Assembly (NCBI GenBank): GCA_041664465.1
Contig: JBAYKP010000003.1
Location: forward strand, 19,405-83,404
DNA: 64,000 nucleotides
From: Minisyncoccota bacterium
GTDB lineage: Bacteria > Patescibacteriota > Minisyncoccia > Phycocordibacterales > UBA9973
Direction: 5' to 3'
Below, in pieces: positions 2,068 through 60,026 of this stretch; position 1 is the first letter of the stretch; each line of letters starts with the position of its first letter. Made by a program: the position numbers and the translations under genes. The notes below the pieces were generated by a model. The model did not search any database. It was not told the DNA's origin and worked only from the letters and a program-made list of their open reading frames with translations.

Positions 2068-2210
2068 AATTCCTCCCCTTGATAAGGGGGACTGAGGGGG
2101 TTGTTTCCCCTCTCCTTTACAAGGAGAGGGTTGGGGAGAGGTTCCTAATTAATTAAGAACCTCCCCTCATTCCCCTCCTTAGTAAGGAGGGGAGGAATTA
2201 GCTCAATCTT
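2068..2210. repeat. GC-rich palindromic repeat family 1, copy 1 (longest copy, carries an extra internal hairpin)
   Basis: aattcctcccct...cctaattaattaagaacctcccctc...tcccctccttagtaaggaggggaggaatt; intergenic upstream of pilB. Confidence 0.6.
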
Positions 2211-2250
2211 CCCTTTTATAAACCTTACTTATAATATATAATGGATATAT

Positions 2251-7184: not shown

Positions 7185-7222
7185 ATATTATCACATCTTT
7201 TGCTCTTTGTCCGTAGAATTTT

Positions 7223-7262
7223 TCCTCCCCTGTGAAGGGGAGGTGGCTCCTAGCCGGAGGGG
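7223..7262. repeat. hairpin repeat family 2, copy A (cctcccctgtgaaggggag gtggct..agcc ggagggg)
   Basis: matches the copies at 14797, 27419 and 62305; intergenic between tyrS and PBP; source of the spurious ORF 7171..7449. Confidence 0.5.
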
Positions 7263-7285
7263 TTTTTGTGTTATGATATATAAGT

Positions 7286-11171: not shown

Positions 11172-11386
11172 ATATTTGTATAGTTAATTTATTAATATAA
11201 TTTATTATTACTACTATGGGTGTGAATATGTGTATTACTTTTTTATATATATTTTACTTATGTTATTTTTTATTTTTAATAATTTTTGATTTAACTATTT
11301 TTGAATAAATATTTTTATAATACTTTTGGACAAAGTTATTAACATTTTTATCTTTTATAAACACAGTTTATCCACATAGATATAAT
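11172..11386. promoter_or_regulatory. candidate oriC: AT-rich dnaA-dnaN intergenic region with a perfect DnaA box TTATCCACA at 11368-11376 and a TGTGAATA-like box near 11212
   Basis: box read directly; long A/T runs suitable for DNA unwinding; canonical oriC position. Confidence 0.45.
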
Positions 11387-12745
11387 TTACTTAAACATAA
11401 TTCTTATTTTTTCAATCTCTTGTAATAATGCTGGGTCTGTTTTCAAATCTTCTTTTATCTTTAAATGTGAGTGGATAGCAGTAGTATGATCTCTTCCCCC
11501 CAATTTGCTTCCTATAAGAGGATAAGAGATGTTGAAATCTTCTCGGAGGATATACATTGCTACTTGTCTAGCCTTCACTATTTCTTTGCGTCGCGTCTTC
11601 TCATATATAACTTCTTCAGAAATTCCATAATGATTAGCGATAACACCCACAATATCCTTAATAGCTACGGTTTTCTTGGGTTTAATATTATTTTTAATAA
11701 GAGCCTTAATTTCGTTTAAAGATAACGATTTGTTTTTAAGTTGAGTCTGACAAATTATTGTGTTTAGGCTACCTTCAAGCTCACGGATGTTTCCCTCAAG
11801 TATCTCTGCTAGATAAGAAATTACATCATTTTCTATAATTGAATTAGTGGATTCAAATTTAGCCTTTATAATTGCAACTCTTGATTCATAATCTGGCTCA
11901 ACAATTTGGACGGTCATCCCAGAGGCGAATCTAGACTGAAGTCTTTCCTCTAATCCTTGTATGAAATTAGGGTGTTTATCAGAAGAAAAGATAATCTGTT
12001 TATTACTTTCGTATAAAGTATTAAAAAGGTGGAATAATTCTTCTTGGGTTTTATCTTTACCAGAGATGAATTGAATATCATCCATTATAATCACATCATA
12101 TTTGCGGTATTTTTCTTTGAAGGAATTTGGGTTCTTGTTTTGGATTGAATTTATATAATCAATTGCAAATCTTTCCAATGAAACATAATATATTTTCTTG
12201 TTTGGGTGTTTTATCTTTATGGTATTACCTATGGCTTGTATCATATGAGTTTTACCAAGACCTGTCCCTCCATAAACAAAGAAAGGATTATAATTTTGCC
12301 CTGGGTTAGCGATAATCGCTTGAGCGACAGCATAAGCCAGCTCATTGAAAGGTCCTACAATGAAAGAATTAAAATTATACTTTGGGTTTAAGTTATCTTC
12401 TTTGTTTAAATATAAATCGTTTAATGGAAGCTCTTTATTTATATTTATTTGTTTATGAACTACATTTTCTATGTTTTTATTTGAGATTTCATTTTTGTGA
12501 ATTATATATTCAATACTACGTATCCCCTCTTCATAGCTTATGATTGTCTTTAATATTAGTTTGTGAAATTTATTATAAAGCCAATCCTTCACAAATTCAT
12601 TGGGAACTCCAATATATAAAGTCCCACCCTCTTCTTTTATTATTGATGTATTCTTAAACCAAGTCGTGAAATTAGCCTTTGATATATTTAATTCTACCTC
12701 AGACAGACACTTTTCCCAGAGTTCTTTTGTATTCATAGAAACCAT
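11387..12745 (-). CDS. dnaA: chromosomal replication initiator DnaA (ORF open to 12826; start placed at the conserved MVSMNTKELWEKCL N-terminus)
   Basis: AAA+ Walker A GGTGLGKTH, C-terminal DNA-binding signature IGSKLGGRDHTTAIHS; DnaA box TATCCACA (minus-strand sense) at 12804-12811 just upstream. Confidence 0.85.
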   Translation of the reverse strand: MVSMNTKELWEKCLSEVELNISKANFTTWFKNTSIIKEEGGTLYIGVPNEFVKDWLYNKFHKLILKTIISYEEGIRSIEYIIHKNEISNKNIENVVHKQININKELPLNDLYLNKEDNLNPKYNFNSFIVGPFNELAYAVAQAIIANPGQNYNPFFVYGGTGLGKTHMIQAIGNTIKIKHPNKKIYYVSLERFAIDYINSIQNKNPNSFKEKYRKYDVIIMDDIQFISGKDKTQEELFHLFNTLYESNKQIIFSSDKHPNFIQGLEERLQSRFASGMTVQIVEPDYESRVAIIKAKFESTNSIIENDVISYLAEILEGNIRELEGSLNTIICQTQLKNKSLSLNEIKALIKNNIKPKKTVAIKDIVGVIANHYGISEEVIYEKTRRKEIVKARQVAMYILREDFNISYPLIGSKLGGRDHTTAIHSHLKIKEDLKTDPALLQEIEKIRIMFK

Positions 12746-12803
12746 TATACTCGTGTTTTCAAAAACACAATAATTAAATACCTTAATTAAGCTGTTGATA
12801 ACG

Positions 12804-12811
12804 TGTGGATA
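12804..12811 (-). promoter_or_regulatory. DnaA box (TATCCACA) in the dnaA/rpmH divergent promoter region
   Basis: plus strand tgtggata; position typical of dnaA autoregulation. Confidence 0.4.
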
Positions 12812-12862
12812 TGTTTTCCTCCACATATTGCTTTATATGTCATTTTAGTATATATTTTCCAT

Positions 12863-13003
12863 ATGTCTTTAACATATCAACCAAACAAAAGAAAAAGAGC
12901 CAAGACCCACGGATTCTTAGTTCGTGCTAAAACCCCAGGAGGTAAAAAGGTTACGAAGGCACGTCGTCAGAAAGGACGCGCTAAAGTATCAATTGCAAAA
13001 TAA
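12863..13003 (+). CDS. rpmH: 50S ribosomal protein L34
   Basis: [30 protein letters not shown]...; internal start of the longer ORF 12803..13003; putative -35 TTGCTT / -10 TATATT with the -10 ending 6 nt before the ATG. Confidence 0.85.
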
Positions 13004-13538: not shown

Positions 13539-13580
13539 TTAATAATTTTTAATTATTAATTAATATGCTACAATAGAGCA

Positions 13581-14324
13581 ATGTCAGCTTTATGGAACAC
13601 CATCTTTTATCAGCCAATTTATAATATCCTTATGTTTATTATAAACCACGTCACTTTCGGTGATGTTGGTTTTGCTATTATAATAGTGACCATTATCGTC
13701 AAACTTATTCTTTCTCCTCTCACCAAAAAGTCCATTAAAAGCCAGATTCTTATGAAGAGAATGGAGCCCGAAATCAAACTTATCAAGAAGAATTATCCCA
13801 ATAAAGAAGAACAAGCTAAAAAAACCTTTGAATTATATAAGAAATATGGGACCAATCCGTTTTCTGGTTGCTTGGTAGTATTACTTCAATTGCCAGTTAT
13901 TTTCGCTTTGTATTATGTATTTTTAAAAGGGCTTTCTCTAGACACCATAAATACTAGTCTAATTTATCCTTTTGTAGGCGTTCCTTCTCTTATGCATACC
14001 AACTTCTTAGGCTTTATAGAAATGGGAGGCAAAAGCATAATTCTAGCCGTTTTAGCGGGAGTTACGCAGTTCGTTCAAGGGTATCTCTCCTCCCCTATCA
14101 CTCCCAAAGTTGAAGTTGTGGGAGATGCCACCCCCAATGAACCTAGGACATTTCAAGATGAATTATCTAGTAGTATGCAGACTAATGTGAAATATATTCT
14201 CCCAATATTTATAGCTTTCATTTCTTGGCAAATTTCAGCTGCGGTTGCTCTCTACTTTGTTATTAGTAATATATTTACTATTCTTCAAGAATGGTATATA
14301 AGAAGAACATTAGATAATAAATAA
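13581..14324 (+). CDS. yidC: membrane protein insertase YidC (short form)
   Basis: multi-TM Oxa1 fold; synteny; TGcTACAAT extended -10 at 13566-13574 ends 6 nt before the ATG. Confidence 0.8.
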   Translation: MSALWNTIFYQPIYNILMFIINHVTFGDVGFAIIIVTIIVKLILSPLTKKSIKSQILMKRMEPEIKLIKKNYPNKEEQAKKTFELYKKYGTNPFSGCLVVLLQLPVIFALYYVFLKGLSLDTINTSLIYPFVGVPSLMHTNFLGFIEMGGKSIILAVLAGVTQFVQGYLSSPITPKVEVVGDATPNEPRTFQDELSSSMQTNVKYILPIFIAFISWQISAAVALYFVISNIFTILQEWYIRRTLDNK

Positions 14325-18531: not shown

Positions 18532-18560
18532 TATATAATATTTACCAAGTTATTGCATTT

Positions 18561-18654
18561 TCTCCCCTCCTTACCAAGGAGGGGACCAAGGAGAGGTTCT
18601 TAATTAATTAGGAACCTCTCCCTCCCCTCTCCTTAGTAAGGAGAGGAGCTAATT
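18561..18654. repeat. GC-rich palindromic repeat family 1, copy 2
   Basis: tctcccctccttaccaaggagggga...cttaattaattaggaacctctccc...ctccttagtaaggagagg; overlaps the VirB4 stop codon. Confidence 0.6.
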
Positions 18655-33533: not shown

Positions 33534-34433
33534 CTAATTTTTTATAGAAAGATTGGATATTTCTATCCATTTTTCAAATTTGATATCCTCAGCTCTTGCC
33601 TTAGGATTTATATCTAATTTTTCAAATATTTCATCTATTTTATTTATATAAGGAAGTCCGACTTCCTTAATTTGTATGTTTGGAAGTCCGACTTCCAAAT
33701 TTTTACGGAGGACTTTTCTTTTATGAGCAAAGCCTGCTTTGATAAGTTGGAAGAATGAATCTTCTTCATTTTTATTTTTGAAAAATTTGTTGGAAATATC
33801 TCCTATGTGAATAATTGCCGAGTCCACCTTAGGAGCTGGGGAGAAGAATCTTTTATGAACTTTCATTATGTATTTTGGTGTGCTGAAAGCTTTCACGGAA
33901 AGAGAAAGAATACTTTCCTTCTCATCTCTTGCTACAATTCGCTCGGCTACCTCTTTCTGGACCAAGAGAGTCATACTGACAGGCTTTGGTTCTTCACTTA
34001 AAAATTTCCTAAGTATTAAACCGGTGATGTTGTAAGGAATGTTGGCGACTATCTTATAGGTATTAATTCCTCCCCTCCTTACTAAGGAGGGGACTGAGGG
34101 GAGGTTCTTAATTAATTCACCCCTCCCTAGCCCTCCCCTTAGTAAGGGGAGGGGATTAAAATTTAAAATATCTTCATTTAATAAAATTAGTTTTCCAGAT
34201 TTTATTTCTTCTGTGAATTTTTCATTAAGTATTTCTATCAAGTCGCGGTCTTTCTCAACCGCAATTACTTTCCTCGCTCTCTCTAAAAGTTTCTCTGTCA
34301 GTGCCCCCTTCCCTGGGCCAATTTCAACAACTATATCTTTATCATTCACACCACTCATCTCGCACATCTTGAAAAGCGCCTCTTTAGACTTCAAGAAATT
34401 CTGCCCCATACTTTTCTTTGCTTGATGAATCAT
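33534..34433 (-). CDS. rsmA: 16S rRNA (adenine1518/1519-N6) dimethyltransferase carrying an in-frame repeat insertion of about 32 aa
   Basis: MGQNFL, VEIGPGKGALT SAM motif, NIPYNI; the insert [32 protein letters not shown] is encoded by repeat family 1 copy 3. Confidence 0.8.
   Translation of the reverse strand: MIHQAKKSMGQNFLKSKEALFKMCEMSGVNDKDIVVEIGPGKGALTEKLLERARKVIAVEKDRDLIEILNEKFTEEIKSGKLILLNEDILNFNPLPLLRGGLGRGELIKNLPSVPSLVRRGGINTYKIVANIPYNITGLILRKFLSEEPKPVSMTLLVQKEVAERIVARDEKESILSLSVKAFSTPKYIMKVHKRFFSPAPKVDSAIIHIGDISNKFFKNKNEEDSFFQLIKAGFAHKRKVLRKNLEVGLPNIQIKEVGLPYINKIDEIFEKLDINPKARAEDIKFEKWIEISNLSIKN
34065..34157. repeat. GC-rich palindromic repeat family 1, copy 3, in frame inside rsmA
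   Basis: aattcctcccctccttactaaggaggggactgaggggaggttcttaattaatt...ccctccccttagtaaggggagggg. Confidence 0.6.
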
Positions 34434-36372: not shown

Positions 36373-36395
36373 TCCCTTATTGTAGCATTTTATTT
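36305..36395. repeat. 91-bp direct repeat, copy 1 (native uvrD 5' end plus upstream region)
   Basis: near-identical to 37642-37732 (2 mismatches). Confidence 0.6.
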
Positions 36396-48342: not shown

Positions 48343-48897
48343 TTAATTTTTAGATTTTTTAAAGCCTTTGAATACAAAATAAAGAGAAATAATTTGTAAT
48401 GCTACAAATATCCATTTATTTTGTATTGTCATTAAAATTCCCATACTGACATTCATAACTGCAAAAAATAACCATCCCTTCCCATTTCTTTTTGCAAGTA
48501 AATATGTACCTGCTAGATATCCGATGGTGACTCCACATTCAAGAATTTGTGTTAGTAAAATTGTTCCATGACTTTCGTATATACTGTACACGATCCCAAT
48601 AATTATTAACATCCAAACAAAAATCTTGACTACCGTATCTATTCTGGGCGAATAATTATGTTTTTGAGTAGTTACAATAATTCCAAGAATCATTGATGGA
48701 GCACCTCCCAATTCAATTGTCATAGCAATCCAATTATGGTTTTGTTCTAAAACAATAATCCAAGCTGGTATTCCAATTAAATATGCTAACCACCCAATTC
48801 TGCGCCACTTAGAATTTTCTTTTCCTTCAGCATTTGAAAGGAAAATTTTTGCAAGGAGATAAAAAATACCTCCCCATAATTGCAATACAATGTTCAT
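48343..48897 (-). CDS. polytopic membrane protein (possibly PnuC-like transporter); start at MNIVLQLW preceded by a GGAGG RBS
   Basis: 5-6 TM helices; rc AGGAGGTAAAAATG at 48897-48911 (one of the few clear SD sites). Confidence 0.4.
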   Translation of the reverse strand: MNIVLQLWGGIFYLLAKIFLSNAEGKENSKWRRIGWLAYLIGIPAWIIVLEQNHNWIAMTIELGGAPSMILGIIVTTQKHNYSPRIDTVVKIFVWMLIIIGIVYSIYESHGTILLTQILECGVTIGYLAGTYLLAKRNGKGWLFFAVMNVSMGILMTIQNKWIFVALQIISLYFVFKGFKKSKN

Positions 48898-49087
48898 TTT
48901 TACCTCCTCTTTTTTGTTTTGAGTAACAGTACTCATTAATAATATAAAAAATAAAAATTTATTTGTCAAGTAATTTAAACAATAAAGACTTAAAATATAC
49001 CTATAATACATACTTAAAATTAAGCATTACATATTCTGTTCGCAGGTATTGACAAAATATGGGGCTTTAATATATACTTAGAATACT

Positions 49088-50191: not shown

Positions 50192-50233
50192 ATTTTATAT
50201 AATACTCCCTTGTAATGACAATGTCAATACAAG

Positions 50234-51802: not shown

Positions 51803-51810
51803 ATATTGTT

Positions 51811-51829
51811 CCCTAGGTCCGACCTAGGG
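51811..51829. repeat. perfect palindrome CCCTAGGTC-c-GACCTAGGG, 9 nt upstream of the comM start; second copy inside xerC at 58484-58504
   Basis: read directly. Confidence 0.4.
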
Positions 51830-51839
51830 TCTATAAAAA

Positions 51840-52202: not shown

Positions 52203-52240
52203 ATTTTTATTTTATCATTATTATGGATAAATTAGCAATT

Positions 52241-55246: not shown

Positions 55247-55412
55247 AATAATTTATAGCTACTCTCCAGACTCTAGTTTTGAAACCCATTTTACTTACCC
55301 GTGGCTTCAACTCTAATTGTCCGAAGATTAACTAGGTTATCTTTTAATGGGGGTATTATAACACAAATCTGTTATTTTATAAAGCTCTGATTATTGTGCT
55401 ATATTTAGTTTT

Positions 55413-57591: not shown

Positions 57592-57607
57592 ATATTACTA
57601 TTATAGC

Positions 57608-57634
57608 AAAATAAAAAGCCTCTTGCGAGACTTC
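57608..57634 (-). terminator. rpsO terminator (GUCUC-GCAA-GAGGC followed by UUUUUAUUUU)
   Basis: GNRA-loop hairpin plus U-run on the minus strand immediately after the rpsO stop. Confidence 0.4.
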
Positions 57635-57910: not shown

Positions 57911-57945
57911 ATAGTAGCATAAAATCTTGGTAATTGCAAGGGGGT

Positions 57946-58043
57946 GTTCCCCCTCCCCTTACTAAGGGGAGGGTTGGGGAGGGGTTCCTAATTAATTAAG
58001 AACCTCCCCTCAATCCCCTCCTTGGTAAGGAGGGGAGGAATTA
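57946..58043. repeat. GC-rich palindromic repeat family 1, copy 4
   Basis: ccccctccccttactaaggggagggttggggaggggttcctaattaattaagaacctcccctcaatcccctccttggtaaggaggggaggaatt; rpsO/xerC intergenic. Confidence 0.6.
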
Positions 58044-58062
58044 AATTCATATGGTATAATTA

Positions 58063-59004
58063 TTGTGCGACATTATGAACACAAAACTTGAACAACTTAA
58101 AAGGGAGTTTTTGGAGCATGTGGAAATAGAGAAAGGAAATAGCTTAAAGACTGTGAATAATTACGACCATTACATAAGTCGTTTTTTGGATTTTGCCAAG
58201 ATTGATAATCCGAAAGATATTACAGACGATAAAATTCGTGAGTTTAGACTTTTCTTAAATAGACAGCCTGGGGTGAAGGTTCGTGGGCAATCATCCGCGA
58301 CTCTCAAGAAGAATACACAGAATTACTATCTGATAGCCCTTCGGACTTTTCTTAAATATCTTATGAAAAGAGATGTCCCCTCCCTTTCTCCTGATAGAAT
58401 AGACTTGGCAAAAGTAAAAGAACGCTCGCTAGATCTTATCTCTGTGGATGAACTTAATAGATTATTGAAGGCCCCTGAGTCTTCCCCTAGGTCGGACCTA
58501 GGGGCAAAAAAATCTTTGCGTGATAAAGCAATTCTTGAGCTTTTCTTCTCGACAGGTCTTCGTCTCTCAGAGCTTTGCTCACTTAATAGAGATTTAGATT
58601 TATCAAAAGATGAATTTTCAATTCGTGGAAAAGGGGAAAAGGTAAGAGTAGTCTTCCTTTCTGATTCGGCCAAGAGTGCGATAAGAGAATATTTGAAAAA
58701 TAGAAAGGATTTAGATGAGCCATTATTCATACAATATTCTAGGAATGGGGCCAAGGGGAACCGTTTAACACCAAGATCTATAGAGAGGATAGTGAAATAC
58801 TATGCAATAAAGGCTGGGATATCAAAGAAAGTTACTCCGCATGTTATTCGCCATTCGTTCGCCACTGACTTACTTTCAAATGGTGCCGATATTCGCTCGG
58901 TCCAGATGATGCTCGGGCATGCCAACATTGCTACGACACAGATATACACACACATAACAGACAAGCAACTTCGTGACGTGCATAAGAAGTTTCATTCGAA
59001 TTAA
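58063..59004 (+). CDS. xerC: tyrosine recombinase XerC/XerD family, with a 7-aa in-frame palindrome insertion (SPRSDLG)
   Basis: C-terminal catalytic motifs HVIRHSFAT...LGHANIATTQIYTH; the CCTAGGTCGGACCTAGG palindrome at 58484-58504 lies in the coding sequence. Confidence 0.8.
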   Translation: MCDIMNTKLEQLKREFLEHVEIEKGNSLKTVNNYDHYISRFLDFAKIDNPKDITDDKIREFRLFLNRQPGVKVRGQSSATLKKNTQNYYLIALRTFLKYLMKRDVPSLSPDRIDLAKVKERSLDLISVDELNRLLKAPESSPRSDLGAKKSLRDKAILELFFSTGLRLSELCSLNRDLDLSKDEFSIRGKGEKVRVVFLSDSAKSAIREYLKNRKDLDEPLFIQYSRNGAKGNRLTPRSIERIVKYYAIKAGISKKVTPHVIRHSFATDLLSNGADIRSVQMMLGHANIATTQIYTHITDKQLRDVHKKFHSN

Positions 59005-59018
59005 TATATAATAAAATT

Positions 59019-59990: not shown

Positions 59991-60026
59991 TTGACAGTTG
60001 ACAGTAAACTGTCAACCATATATACT
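59991..60026 (+). promoter_or_regulatory. strong promoter with embedded palindromic operator: tandem TTGACAGT, inverted repeat GTTGACAG-taaa-CTGTCAAC, -35 TTGACA (59998-60003), 17-nt spacer, -10 TATACT (60021-60026)
   Basis: read directly; the -10 ends 7 nt before the ATG at 60034. Confidence 0.45.

Follow-up and report, generated by a model that had tools for sequence, protein, structure and literature searches.

Sigma-70-type promoters set against the start codon and predicted leaderless mRNAs in a Candidatus Nomurabacteria genome region and its relatives

In the 64,000-nt stretch of DNA analysed here, hereafter called the window, promoters of the sigma-70 type directly abut the ATG of many genes, and transcription would begin at the AUG or 1-3 nt before it, so that the resulting mRNAs would be leaderless. 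A probability of roughly 0.8 is given to this reading, which is drawn from sequence. The anatomy of the promoters, their register with the start codon, their conservation among species, their restriction to genes that open an operon, their specificity for ATG and the absence of Shine-Dalgarno (SD) sequences are matters of direct observation.

The window has 35% GC and was assigned to a contig of Candidatus Nomurabacteria (Paceibacteria, Parcubacteria, CPR). On the minus strand lie dnaN-dnaA, and the plus strand carries rpmH-rnpA-yidD-yidC-jag; a protein identical to the YidC of the window is encoded on an ENA metagenome contig. The window DnaA is 65-94% identical to those of 80 species-representative MAGs, many of them labelled Candidatus Nomurabacteria, Paceibacteria or Paceibacterota, and the 80 DnaA-matched loci (L002-L081, about 1.3 Mb, one per species) were used for comparison. 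A further 80 metagenome loci surrounding pnp (L082-L161) formed a second set, which provided both an independent sample and a control. In total 168 related loci were compared, and about 100 related genomes support the leaderless pattern. Genes in the first 80 loci and the window were called naively, as the longest non-overlapping ORFs starting at the first ATG; genes lying 50 nt or more from the gene upstream were taken as operon-first (n = 605 in the 80 loci and the window), and 371 genes were operon-internal. Transcription units of the window, about 38 in number, were defined as genes that lie 30 nt or more from the gene upstream or have a divergent neighbour. Starts in the window were curated, those of rpsO and the tRNA synthetase gene being chosen on orthologue evidence with the promoter also in view.

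The evidence that the register of the -10 box near the ATG is real, and far beyond chance, is decisive. Among the 605 operon-first genes, TAnAAT ended at 6, 7 and 8 nt from the ATG in 88, 28 and 22 cases, with about 3 at other offsets, and among the 371 operon-internal genes in 16, 3 and 6. The extended form TGnTAnnnT ended at the same three distances in 52, 9 and 25 operon-first genes (about 0-1 at other offsets), the peak being highest at 6 nt, then at 8 and then at 7 nt, and in only 4, 0 and 1 internal genes, i.e., 5/371 vs 86/605 in sum. When gene calls were set aside and the codon 6 nt past TGnTAnnnT was scored wherever it opened an ORF of 100 codons or more, it was ATG in 118 cases, GTG in 4 and TTG in 2, against a mean of 1.6 for the other codons at that 6-nt offset. 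The 80 related loci sample the same approximately 20 gene families over and over, and this repeated sampling of orthologues was removed by family weighting; after weighting, 26 of 102 family equivalents had their best promoter within 45 nt ending at a distance of 6-9 nt from the ATG where about 7 were expected, an excess of about 19 of the 102 families. In the window alone, with curated starts, a strong -35/-10 match ended 5-9 nt before the ATG in 10 of the 56 genes, as against 0-3 (about 1 on average) in each of nine other 5-nt bins, and none of the 270 internal in-frame ATGs of the window reached the strong-promoter score. A first-pass annotation of this DNA had noticed that -10 boxes recur 6-8 nt before the ATG and had proposed a statistic of the distance from the best -10 match to the start; the recurrence is borne out by the 605 operon-first genes and by the 10/56 genes of the window, and the distances have a sharp peak at 6-8 nt in the window and the 80 loci.

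The same boxes might be regarded as chance TATAAT matches in AT-rich intergenic DNA. A generic sigma-70 scan of the 10-16 kb region stayed at the level of shuffled sequence (35 sites vs 28.7 +/- 6), and plain TAnnnT, counted in the window only under the first-ATG rule, was noisy and barely enriched at 6-8 nt. Lone promoter-like matches are uninformative in DNA of 35% GC, and therefore positional tests were used instead; similarly, the window counts of plain TAnnnT were too noisy, so that both a full promoter score and data from the related loci were required. The positional peaks, however, rise 20- to 70-fold over background and the register is conserved in 80 species. Moreover, the signal persists in CPR-like loci of 45-56% GC, where TAnnnT at 6-8 nt was found in 30-48% of genes vs 0-17% at the control offset, and this excludes an artefact of AT-richness. 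Chance is already refuted as an explanation and retains almost no probability.

The box can be recognized as part of a sigma-70-type promoter by a -35 element at 16-18 nt and/or by an extended -10 TGn, and these were found. A family-weighted set of boxes lying 6 nt from the ATG (24 families) was aligned on the -10 hexamer, with boxes lying 14 nt from the ATG as the control set. In the 6-nt set, the two defined TGn positions were T in 49% and G in 56%, and exactly 17 nt upstream of the hexamer T, T and G occurred at 50, 58 and 38%; neither the TGn nor the TTG enrichment was seen in the 14-nt control set. In the set with the box at 8 nt, the base 7 nt past the box was A in 72%, which is expected if the polymerase starts at a fixed 7 nt past the box and leaves a 2-nt leader. 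These features also bear on a second interpretation, in which the TAnnnT box would be an AT-rich, non-SD ribosome-binding or unwinding signal within a longer 5' UTR, like that of GeneMarkS-2 group B. With SD sequences absent, some other translational signal must exist, and the upstream regions of all genes are indeed A-rich, with T at -1 in 51-79%. However, TGn together with TTG at 17-nt spacing is read by RNA polymerase and not by the ribosome, TGnTAnnnT is nearly absent before internal genes by the counts given above, and group B motifs precede first and internal genes alike (PMC6028130). An interpretation of the box as a translational signal is thus very improbable.

Conservation of the promoter footprints was seen in the genes around dnaA. 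In rpmH (L34, 46 aa; plus strand), the -35 TTGCTT lies at 12828-12833 and the -10 TATATT at 12851-12856, ending 6 nt before the start codon at 12863-12865, the A of which is the predicted transcription start. About 78 distinct orthologous upstream regions keep the arrangement TTGcaT, 17 nt, TAtAtT or TATACT, 6 variable nt, ATG, the -35 taking the form TTG(c/a)(a/t)T. The yidC gene of the window has the extended -10 TGcTACAAT (13566-13574, plus strand) 6 nt before its start codon (13581-13583), and TAcAAT or TAGAAT followed by 6 nt and the ATG was present in 69 of 73 orthologues. The N-terminus of YidC may be longer or shorter, and the ATG tracks the -10 box rather than the protein alignment. 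The window yidC has no -35, and those relatives with a TTTGAA-type -35 are often without the TG; this alternation is the classic trade-off between the two elements. On the minus strand, the dnaA -10 TATAAT (12744-12749) lies 7 nt before the start codon at 12734-12736, and in the orthologues TATAAT precedes the ATG of the conserved MNTKELW start by 7 and sometimes 6 nt. In all three genes the hexamers are kept while the nucleotides separating the box from the ATG differ among species. Three DnaA boxes were also found near dnaA, one perfect TTATCCACA at 11368-11376, just downstream of the gene, and two with one mismatch at 12793-12801 and 12804-12812, between the divergent dnaA and rpmH promoters; they are likely autoregulatory or origin elements.

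Similar footprints were seen elsewhere in the window. The pilB -10 TATAAT (2237-2242, plus strand) ends 8 nt before ATG 2251, and its orthologues have the box 6-9 nt, most often 8 nt, from the ATG. A gene for a HTH-domain protein has the promoter TTGACA (59998-60003), 17 nt, TATACT (60021-60026) on the plus strand, 7 nt before ATG 60034; the single orthologue found (L110) has TTGACA, 18 nt, TAGCAT, 6 nt, ATG. Together with rpmH and yidC, these two genes were the examples named in the first-pass annotation; the coordinates given there were all read correctly from the sequence, and the four examples hold, three of them being backed by comparative data. A palindrome, GTTGACAG-TAAA-CTGTCAAC (59997-60017), overlaps the -35 and the spacer of the HTH-gene promoter and is kept in L110, with a tandem TTGACA copy at 59991-59996; it is probably an autoregulatory operator of the HTH protein.

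The pattern is also kept in the orthologues of the Tyr/Trp-tRNA synthetase and penicillin-binding protein (PBP) genes, which are divergent in the window. The synthetase gene (minus strand) has a -10 TAATAT at 7185-7190, 6 nt before ATG 7178, which is the second ATG of the ORF and also the start in the public gene call (401 aa), with a -35-like CGGACA upstream at 7208-7213. The PBP gene (plus strand) has the extended -10 TGtTATGAT at 7269-7277, 8 nt before ATG 7286. Between the two promoters a conserved motif, GCGGACAAAG, was seen at about 7205-7225 of the window; it may be the -35 (cGGACA) of the synthetase promoter. In the second and more divergent set of loci the pattern was repeated for rpsO, the exonuclease III gene (exoIII), a NYN-domain gene and a DksA-like gene. 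The rpsO promoter of the window (57911-57939, minus strand) consists of TTGCAA, 17 nt and TGcTACTAT and lies 9 nt before ATG 57901; across species its -35 and extended -10 are conserved and the distance from box to ATG is 6-9 nt. The exoIII -10 TATAAT (59007-59012, plus strand) is located inside the 3' end of a xerC-like gene, 6 nt before ATG 59019, and this distance was 6-8 nt in 15 of the 16 orthologues shown. The NYN-domain gene has TGcTATAAT (57600-57608, minus strand) directly past the rpsO terminator hairpin and 8 nt before ATG 57591, and the DksA/TraR zinc-finger gene has TGaTAAAAT (52209-52217, minus strand) 6 nt before ATG 52202.

In the xerC-like gene of the window, TGgTATAAT is followed by a 14-nt stretch that holds the motif (T)TGTGCGACA(T), at 58061-58072. 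This motif is conserved upstream of the gene in many species (L082-L113), being placed between the -10 and the ATG in some, including the window, and upstream of the -10 in others; it may be the site of a regulator.

Further promoters of this type precede a UvrD/PcrA-like helicase gene (TGcTACAAT, 36379-36387, minus strand, 6 nt before ATG 36372), a TrmB-family regulator gene (TTGACA, 18 nt, TATACT, 49049-49078, plus strand, 9 nt before ATG 49088, the distance being 6 nt in L083), a RelB-like gene (TTGACA, 17 nt, TATTAT, 50199-50227, minus strand, 7 nt before ATG 50191) and a gene of 188 aa (TGcTATATT, 55397-55405, plus strand, 7 nt before ATG 55413). Fourteen genes of the window are therefore clear cases, i.e., those for pilB, the tRNA synthetase, PBP, dnaA, rpmH, yidC, uvrD, TrmB, the RelB-like protein, the DksA-like protein, the 188-aa protein, the NYN protein, rpsO and the HTH protein. 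The exoIII gene fits the geometry too, despite an upstream gap of only 14 nt, and there are two weaker candidates, rsmA, which has a good box but a gap of 1 nt from uvrD, and an AAA_14 gene, which has AATAAT only. The geometry is not fitted by pnp, comM, dnaN, ruvB and most T4SS-like genes in the window and among the orthologues; in dnaN orthologues, for instance, the box was found in 21% vs 31% at the control offset. The widespread leaderless initiation suggested in the first-pass annotation is accordingly upheld for about 14-17 of the approximately 38 transcription units of the window (about 35-45%, or around a quarter of all genes), but it is not universal, as pnp, comM and dnaN demonstrate.

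In the mechanism that we propose, a sigma-70-type holoenzyme would recognize ordinary promoters that are set directly against the coding sequence and made up of a -35 TTGaca or TTGcat, a 17-nt spacer and a -10 TAnAAT often extended by TGn, the hexamer ending 6 nt, and sometimes 7-9 nt, before the ATG. RNA polymerase normally starts 7 nt past the -10 hexamer, and a start at this position means that the transcript would begin at the A of the AUG or with a leader of 1-3 nt. A leader of 0-3 nt leaves no space for a ribosome-binding site, and initiation would consequently follow the leaderless route, in which the ribosome together with the initiator tRNA binds the 5'-terminal AUG. In several genes the distance from box to ATG is 8-9 nt, so that the predicted leaders are of 2-3 nt and these mRNAs would not be strictly leaderless. 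Where transcription starts and how these mRNAs are translated are thus inferred from the conserved geometry of the promoters. A minority of genes (pnp, comM and pnuC in the window) would have real leaders that carry no conserved SD.

The scarcity of SD sequences was general. Few genes had been said to show them in the first-pass annotation, and only one strong case was indeed found among the 56 genes of the window. At any one position, SD 4-mers occurred in at most 3 of the 605 operon-first genes of the related loci and the window, and G made up only 7-11% of the bases at -13 to -6, before first and internal genes alike. GGAGG-like sequences 5-10 nt before most starts, as in canonical SD-led initiation, were not present. 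As a positive control, the same pipeline found SD sequences in 26-65% of the genes of the second set's most distant loci; these SD-rich loci, presumably non-CPR, had no -10 peak. No rRNA gene was found in the window or in the 168 loci, in which the universal 16S/23S primer sites were searched. It was reported that the anti-SD motif could be detected in only 48% of Parcubacteria 16S rRNAs (Tsurumaki 2022, PMC9297842).

The single strong SD of the window, GAGGAGG at 48903-48909 (minus strand), lies 5 nt before ATG 48897 of a PnuC-like gene, where a GGAGG had been singled out as the clearest exception. The promoter of this gene (TTGACA 48969-48964, 17 nt, TATATT 48946-48941; 48895-48969 with the start codon) is separated from the ATG by 43 nt, within which the GAGGAGG is located, and the leader would be about 37 nt long if transcription starts 7 nt past the box. 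PnuC homologues likewise start at ATG 48897. In sister Nomurabacteria pnuC is still divergent from the same TrmB regulator gene; in L162 and L167 it has TTGACA, 16 nt, TATACT, 6 nt, ATG, and would be leaderless by geometry, and in L166 the stretch from box to ATG is 43 nt again but without any SD. A role of the GGAGG as a conserved SD was therefore ruled out, as it is missing in L166 and the gene of L162 and L167 is leaderless in its geometry. By this comparison the window pnuC is predicted to be leadered, its SD-like run being unconserved, and the distances of 6 nt vs 43 nt among Nomurabacteria, in which the pnuC promoter itself is conserved, point to a recent switch of the same gene between the leaderless and the leadered state. 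The pnp gene is leadered as well. A conserved block, TTTCAAAACTAGAGTCTGGAG, is found 15-35 nt before the ATG of pnp in the closest relatives (55247-55300 in the window, minus strand) and may be a processing or autoregulatory site, by analogy with pnp of E. coli. In comM, a GC-rich terminator-like hairpin (51803-51839) ends 8-10 nt before the ATG; relatives have a hairpin and then a T-run at the same place, and there is no space for a promoter or a SD.

It is conceivable that the ATG-proximal promoters are real but secondary, most transcripts coming from further upstream with SD-less leaders and leaderless mRNAs being a minor species. The NYN orthologues in L083, L084, L086 and L090 do have a strong box about 40 nt upstream instead, as does pnuC in the window and in L166, and for yidC, exoIII and rsmA, which lie inside operons, read-through from upstream is possible. 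However, the intergenic DNA of the divergent pairs dnaA/rpmH, tRNA synthetase/PBP and rpsO/xerC is only about 100-170 nt long and the conserved blocks within it are the ATG-proximal -35 and -10 elements; the 49-nt gap before the NYN gene is wholly taken up by the terminator hairpin and the promoter, and the exact 6-nt register is held by selection across 80 species. For these reasons, an origin of most transcripts further upstream is considered unlikely, and transcription from promoters abutting the ATG is preferred.

Under this preferred reading the downstream cistrons, which are also without SD, would probably be reached by termination-reinitiation, that is by tight coupling across very short gaps. 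Gaps of 1-5 nt made up 24% of same-strand pairs, and the usual bacterial overlaps of -4 and -1 were rare, as were the corresponding ATGA and TAATG sequences that are typical of bacteria. The commonest same-strand junction by far was TAAtATG, in which 1 nt separates the two genes; it was counted 60 times in the window and L002-L081, in 8 families. These short junctions suggest termination-reinitiation without SD. A T at -1 was observed before the majority of start codons (51-79% of starts), including those of operon-internal genes (68%). For leaderless genes, a pyrimidine at -1 followed by a purine start agrees with the preference of transcription starts, although this preference does not account for the T at -1 of internal genes.

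The geometry also affects the calling of start codons, as had been anticipated in the first-pass annotation. In the public call dnaA has 479 aa, compared with 449 aa from the conserved start and the promoter, and is thus 30 codons too long; the extension (12737-12826, minus strand) spans the gene's own promoter and reaches the -35 region of rpmH. At 12736 homology and the TATAAT-7-ATG geometry agree. In rpsO it is the second ATG, 57901, that is conserved as the start, and not the first. In such MAGs, starts will be misplaced by gene callers whose training relies on SD signals, and the rule '-10 box, 6-8 nt, ATG' provides a simple correction.

A '-10 motif adjacent to ORFs' in Deinococcus-Thermus was reportedly described by de Groot in 2014, and a leaderless transcriptome of Mycobacterium by Cortes in 2013. 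GUG is common as a leaderless start in mycobacteria. In Haloferax most first cistrons are leaderless, and SD sequences are dispensable for downstream cistrons. Bacterial leaderless genes have as their accepted signature a Pribnow box at 6-8 nt from the start (PMC6028130, PMC12340547). In GeneMarkS-2 group C, comprising Actinobacteria and Deinococcus-Thermus, the box stands before operon-first genes and 25-50% of operons were predicted to be leaderless; CPR lineages are unmentioned in that paper (PMC6028130). In Deinococcus, around one third of genes have TANNNT at about 6-7 bp before the ORF, and this -10 motif is conserved among species and reveals mis-annotated starts (Zhong 2025, PMC12340547). 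The study on Parcubacteria 16S rRNAs does not contain the word 'leaderless' and does not address leaderless mRNAs (Tsurumaki 2022, PMC9297842). No pairing of 'leaderless' with Parcubacteria was found in the papers searched, and in those matches that were examined, a part of the total for CPR, Patescibacteria and Saccharibacteria, 'leaderless' referred to YchF or to protein secretion.

The architecture seen here would accordingly be a known mechanism in a new lineage, of the Actinobacteria/Deinococcus type and unusual in having no SD fallback. It shares with Deinococcus-Thermus the adjoining -10 box, its conservation among species and the exposure of mis-called starts; however, other genes of Deinococcus-Thermus carry GGAG, while in the present loci no gene class showed an SD motif, and the promoters described here are AT-rich and often have an extended -10. 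As in Actinobacteria and group C generally, the box stands 6-8 nt before operon-first genes, in about 35-45% of units in the window, a share that falls within those published for Actinobacteria and Deinococcus. The main departure is that internal and leadered genes of group C have SD sites, whereas the internal genes examined here are without SD. Unlike in mycobacteria with their common GUG starts, ATG prevails in the present loci (118 vs GTG 4). Haloarchaea resemble the pattern proposed here in their leaderless first cistrons and SD-independent initiation, but their promoter (TATA/BRE, about 26 nt upstream) and their initiation factors are archaeal. Bacteroidota and Cyanobacteria (group B) are alike in making almost no use of SD and in their A-rich upstream regions, but their mRNAs are leadered and the motif precedes all genes, whereas the present box is a promoter confined to first cistrons. 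The Parcubacteria without anti-SD (PMC9297842) belong to the same broad lineage, and the rRNA side there fits the absence of SD on the mRNA side.

A broader proposal, tentative and put at slightly less than even odds, is that Nomurabacteria, and probably all Paceibacteria, have abandoned the SD and rely on leaderless first cistrons, with SD-independent reinitiation at the TAAtATG junction downstream. An SD-free lineage would fit reports that Parcubacteria have lost the anti-SD tail and some of their ribosomal proteins. If this is true, it would be the first bacterial group in which initiation by default is like that of haloarchaea and not like that of E. coli. Leaderless expression as proposed for the window and its relatives would itself bring a large uncultured radiation of reduced genomes to the bacteria that rely on leaderless mRNAs, and would provide an mRNA-side counterpart to the anti-SD loss reported in many Parcubacteria. 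The conserved architecture makes testable how starts are selected by ribosomes in which uL30 is missing, bS21 and uL1 are often missing and the anti-SD tail is possibly missing too, and the conserved ATG-fused promoters are ready-made parts for expression studies in CPR.

Besides the promoters, a composite palindromic element, GC-rich and about 75 nt long, containing GAGGTTCCTAATTAATTAAGAACCTC plus CCCCTCCTTnnTAAGGAGGGG, was observed in 4-5 copies in the AT-rich window (2130-2205, 18555-18650, 34055-34130 and 57975-58045). It was absent from all 168 related loci, including those of species with 89-94% DnaA identity. One copy lies in frame inside rsmA, adding about 19 residues (the LLRGGLGRGELIKNLPSVPSLVRRGGI region) that are lacking in the orthologues, and the element recalls the Rickettsia palindromic elements.
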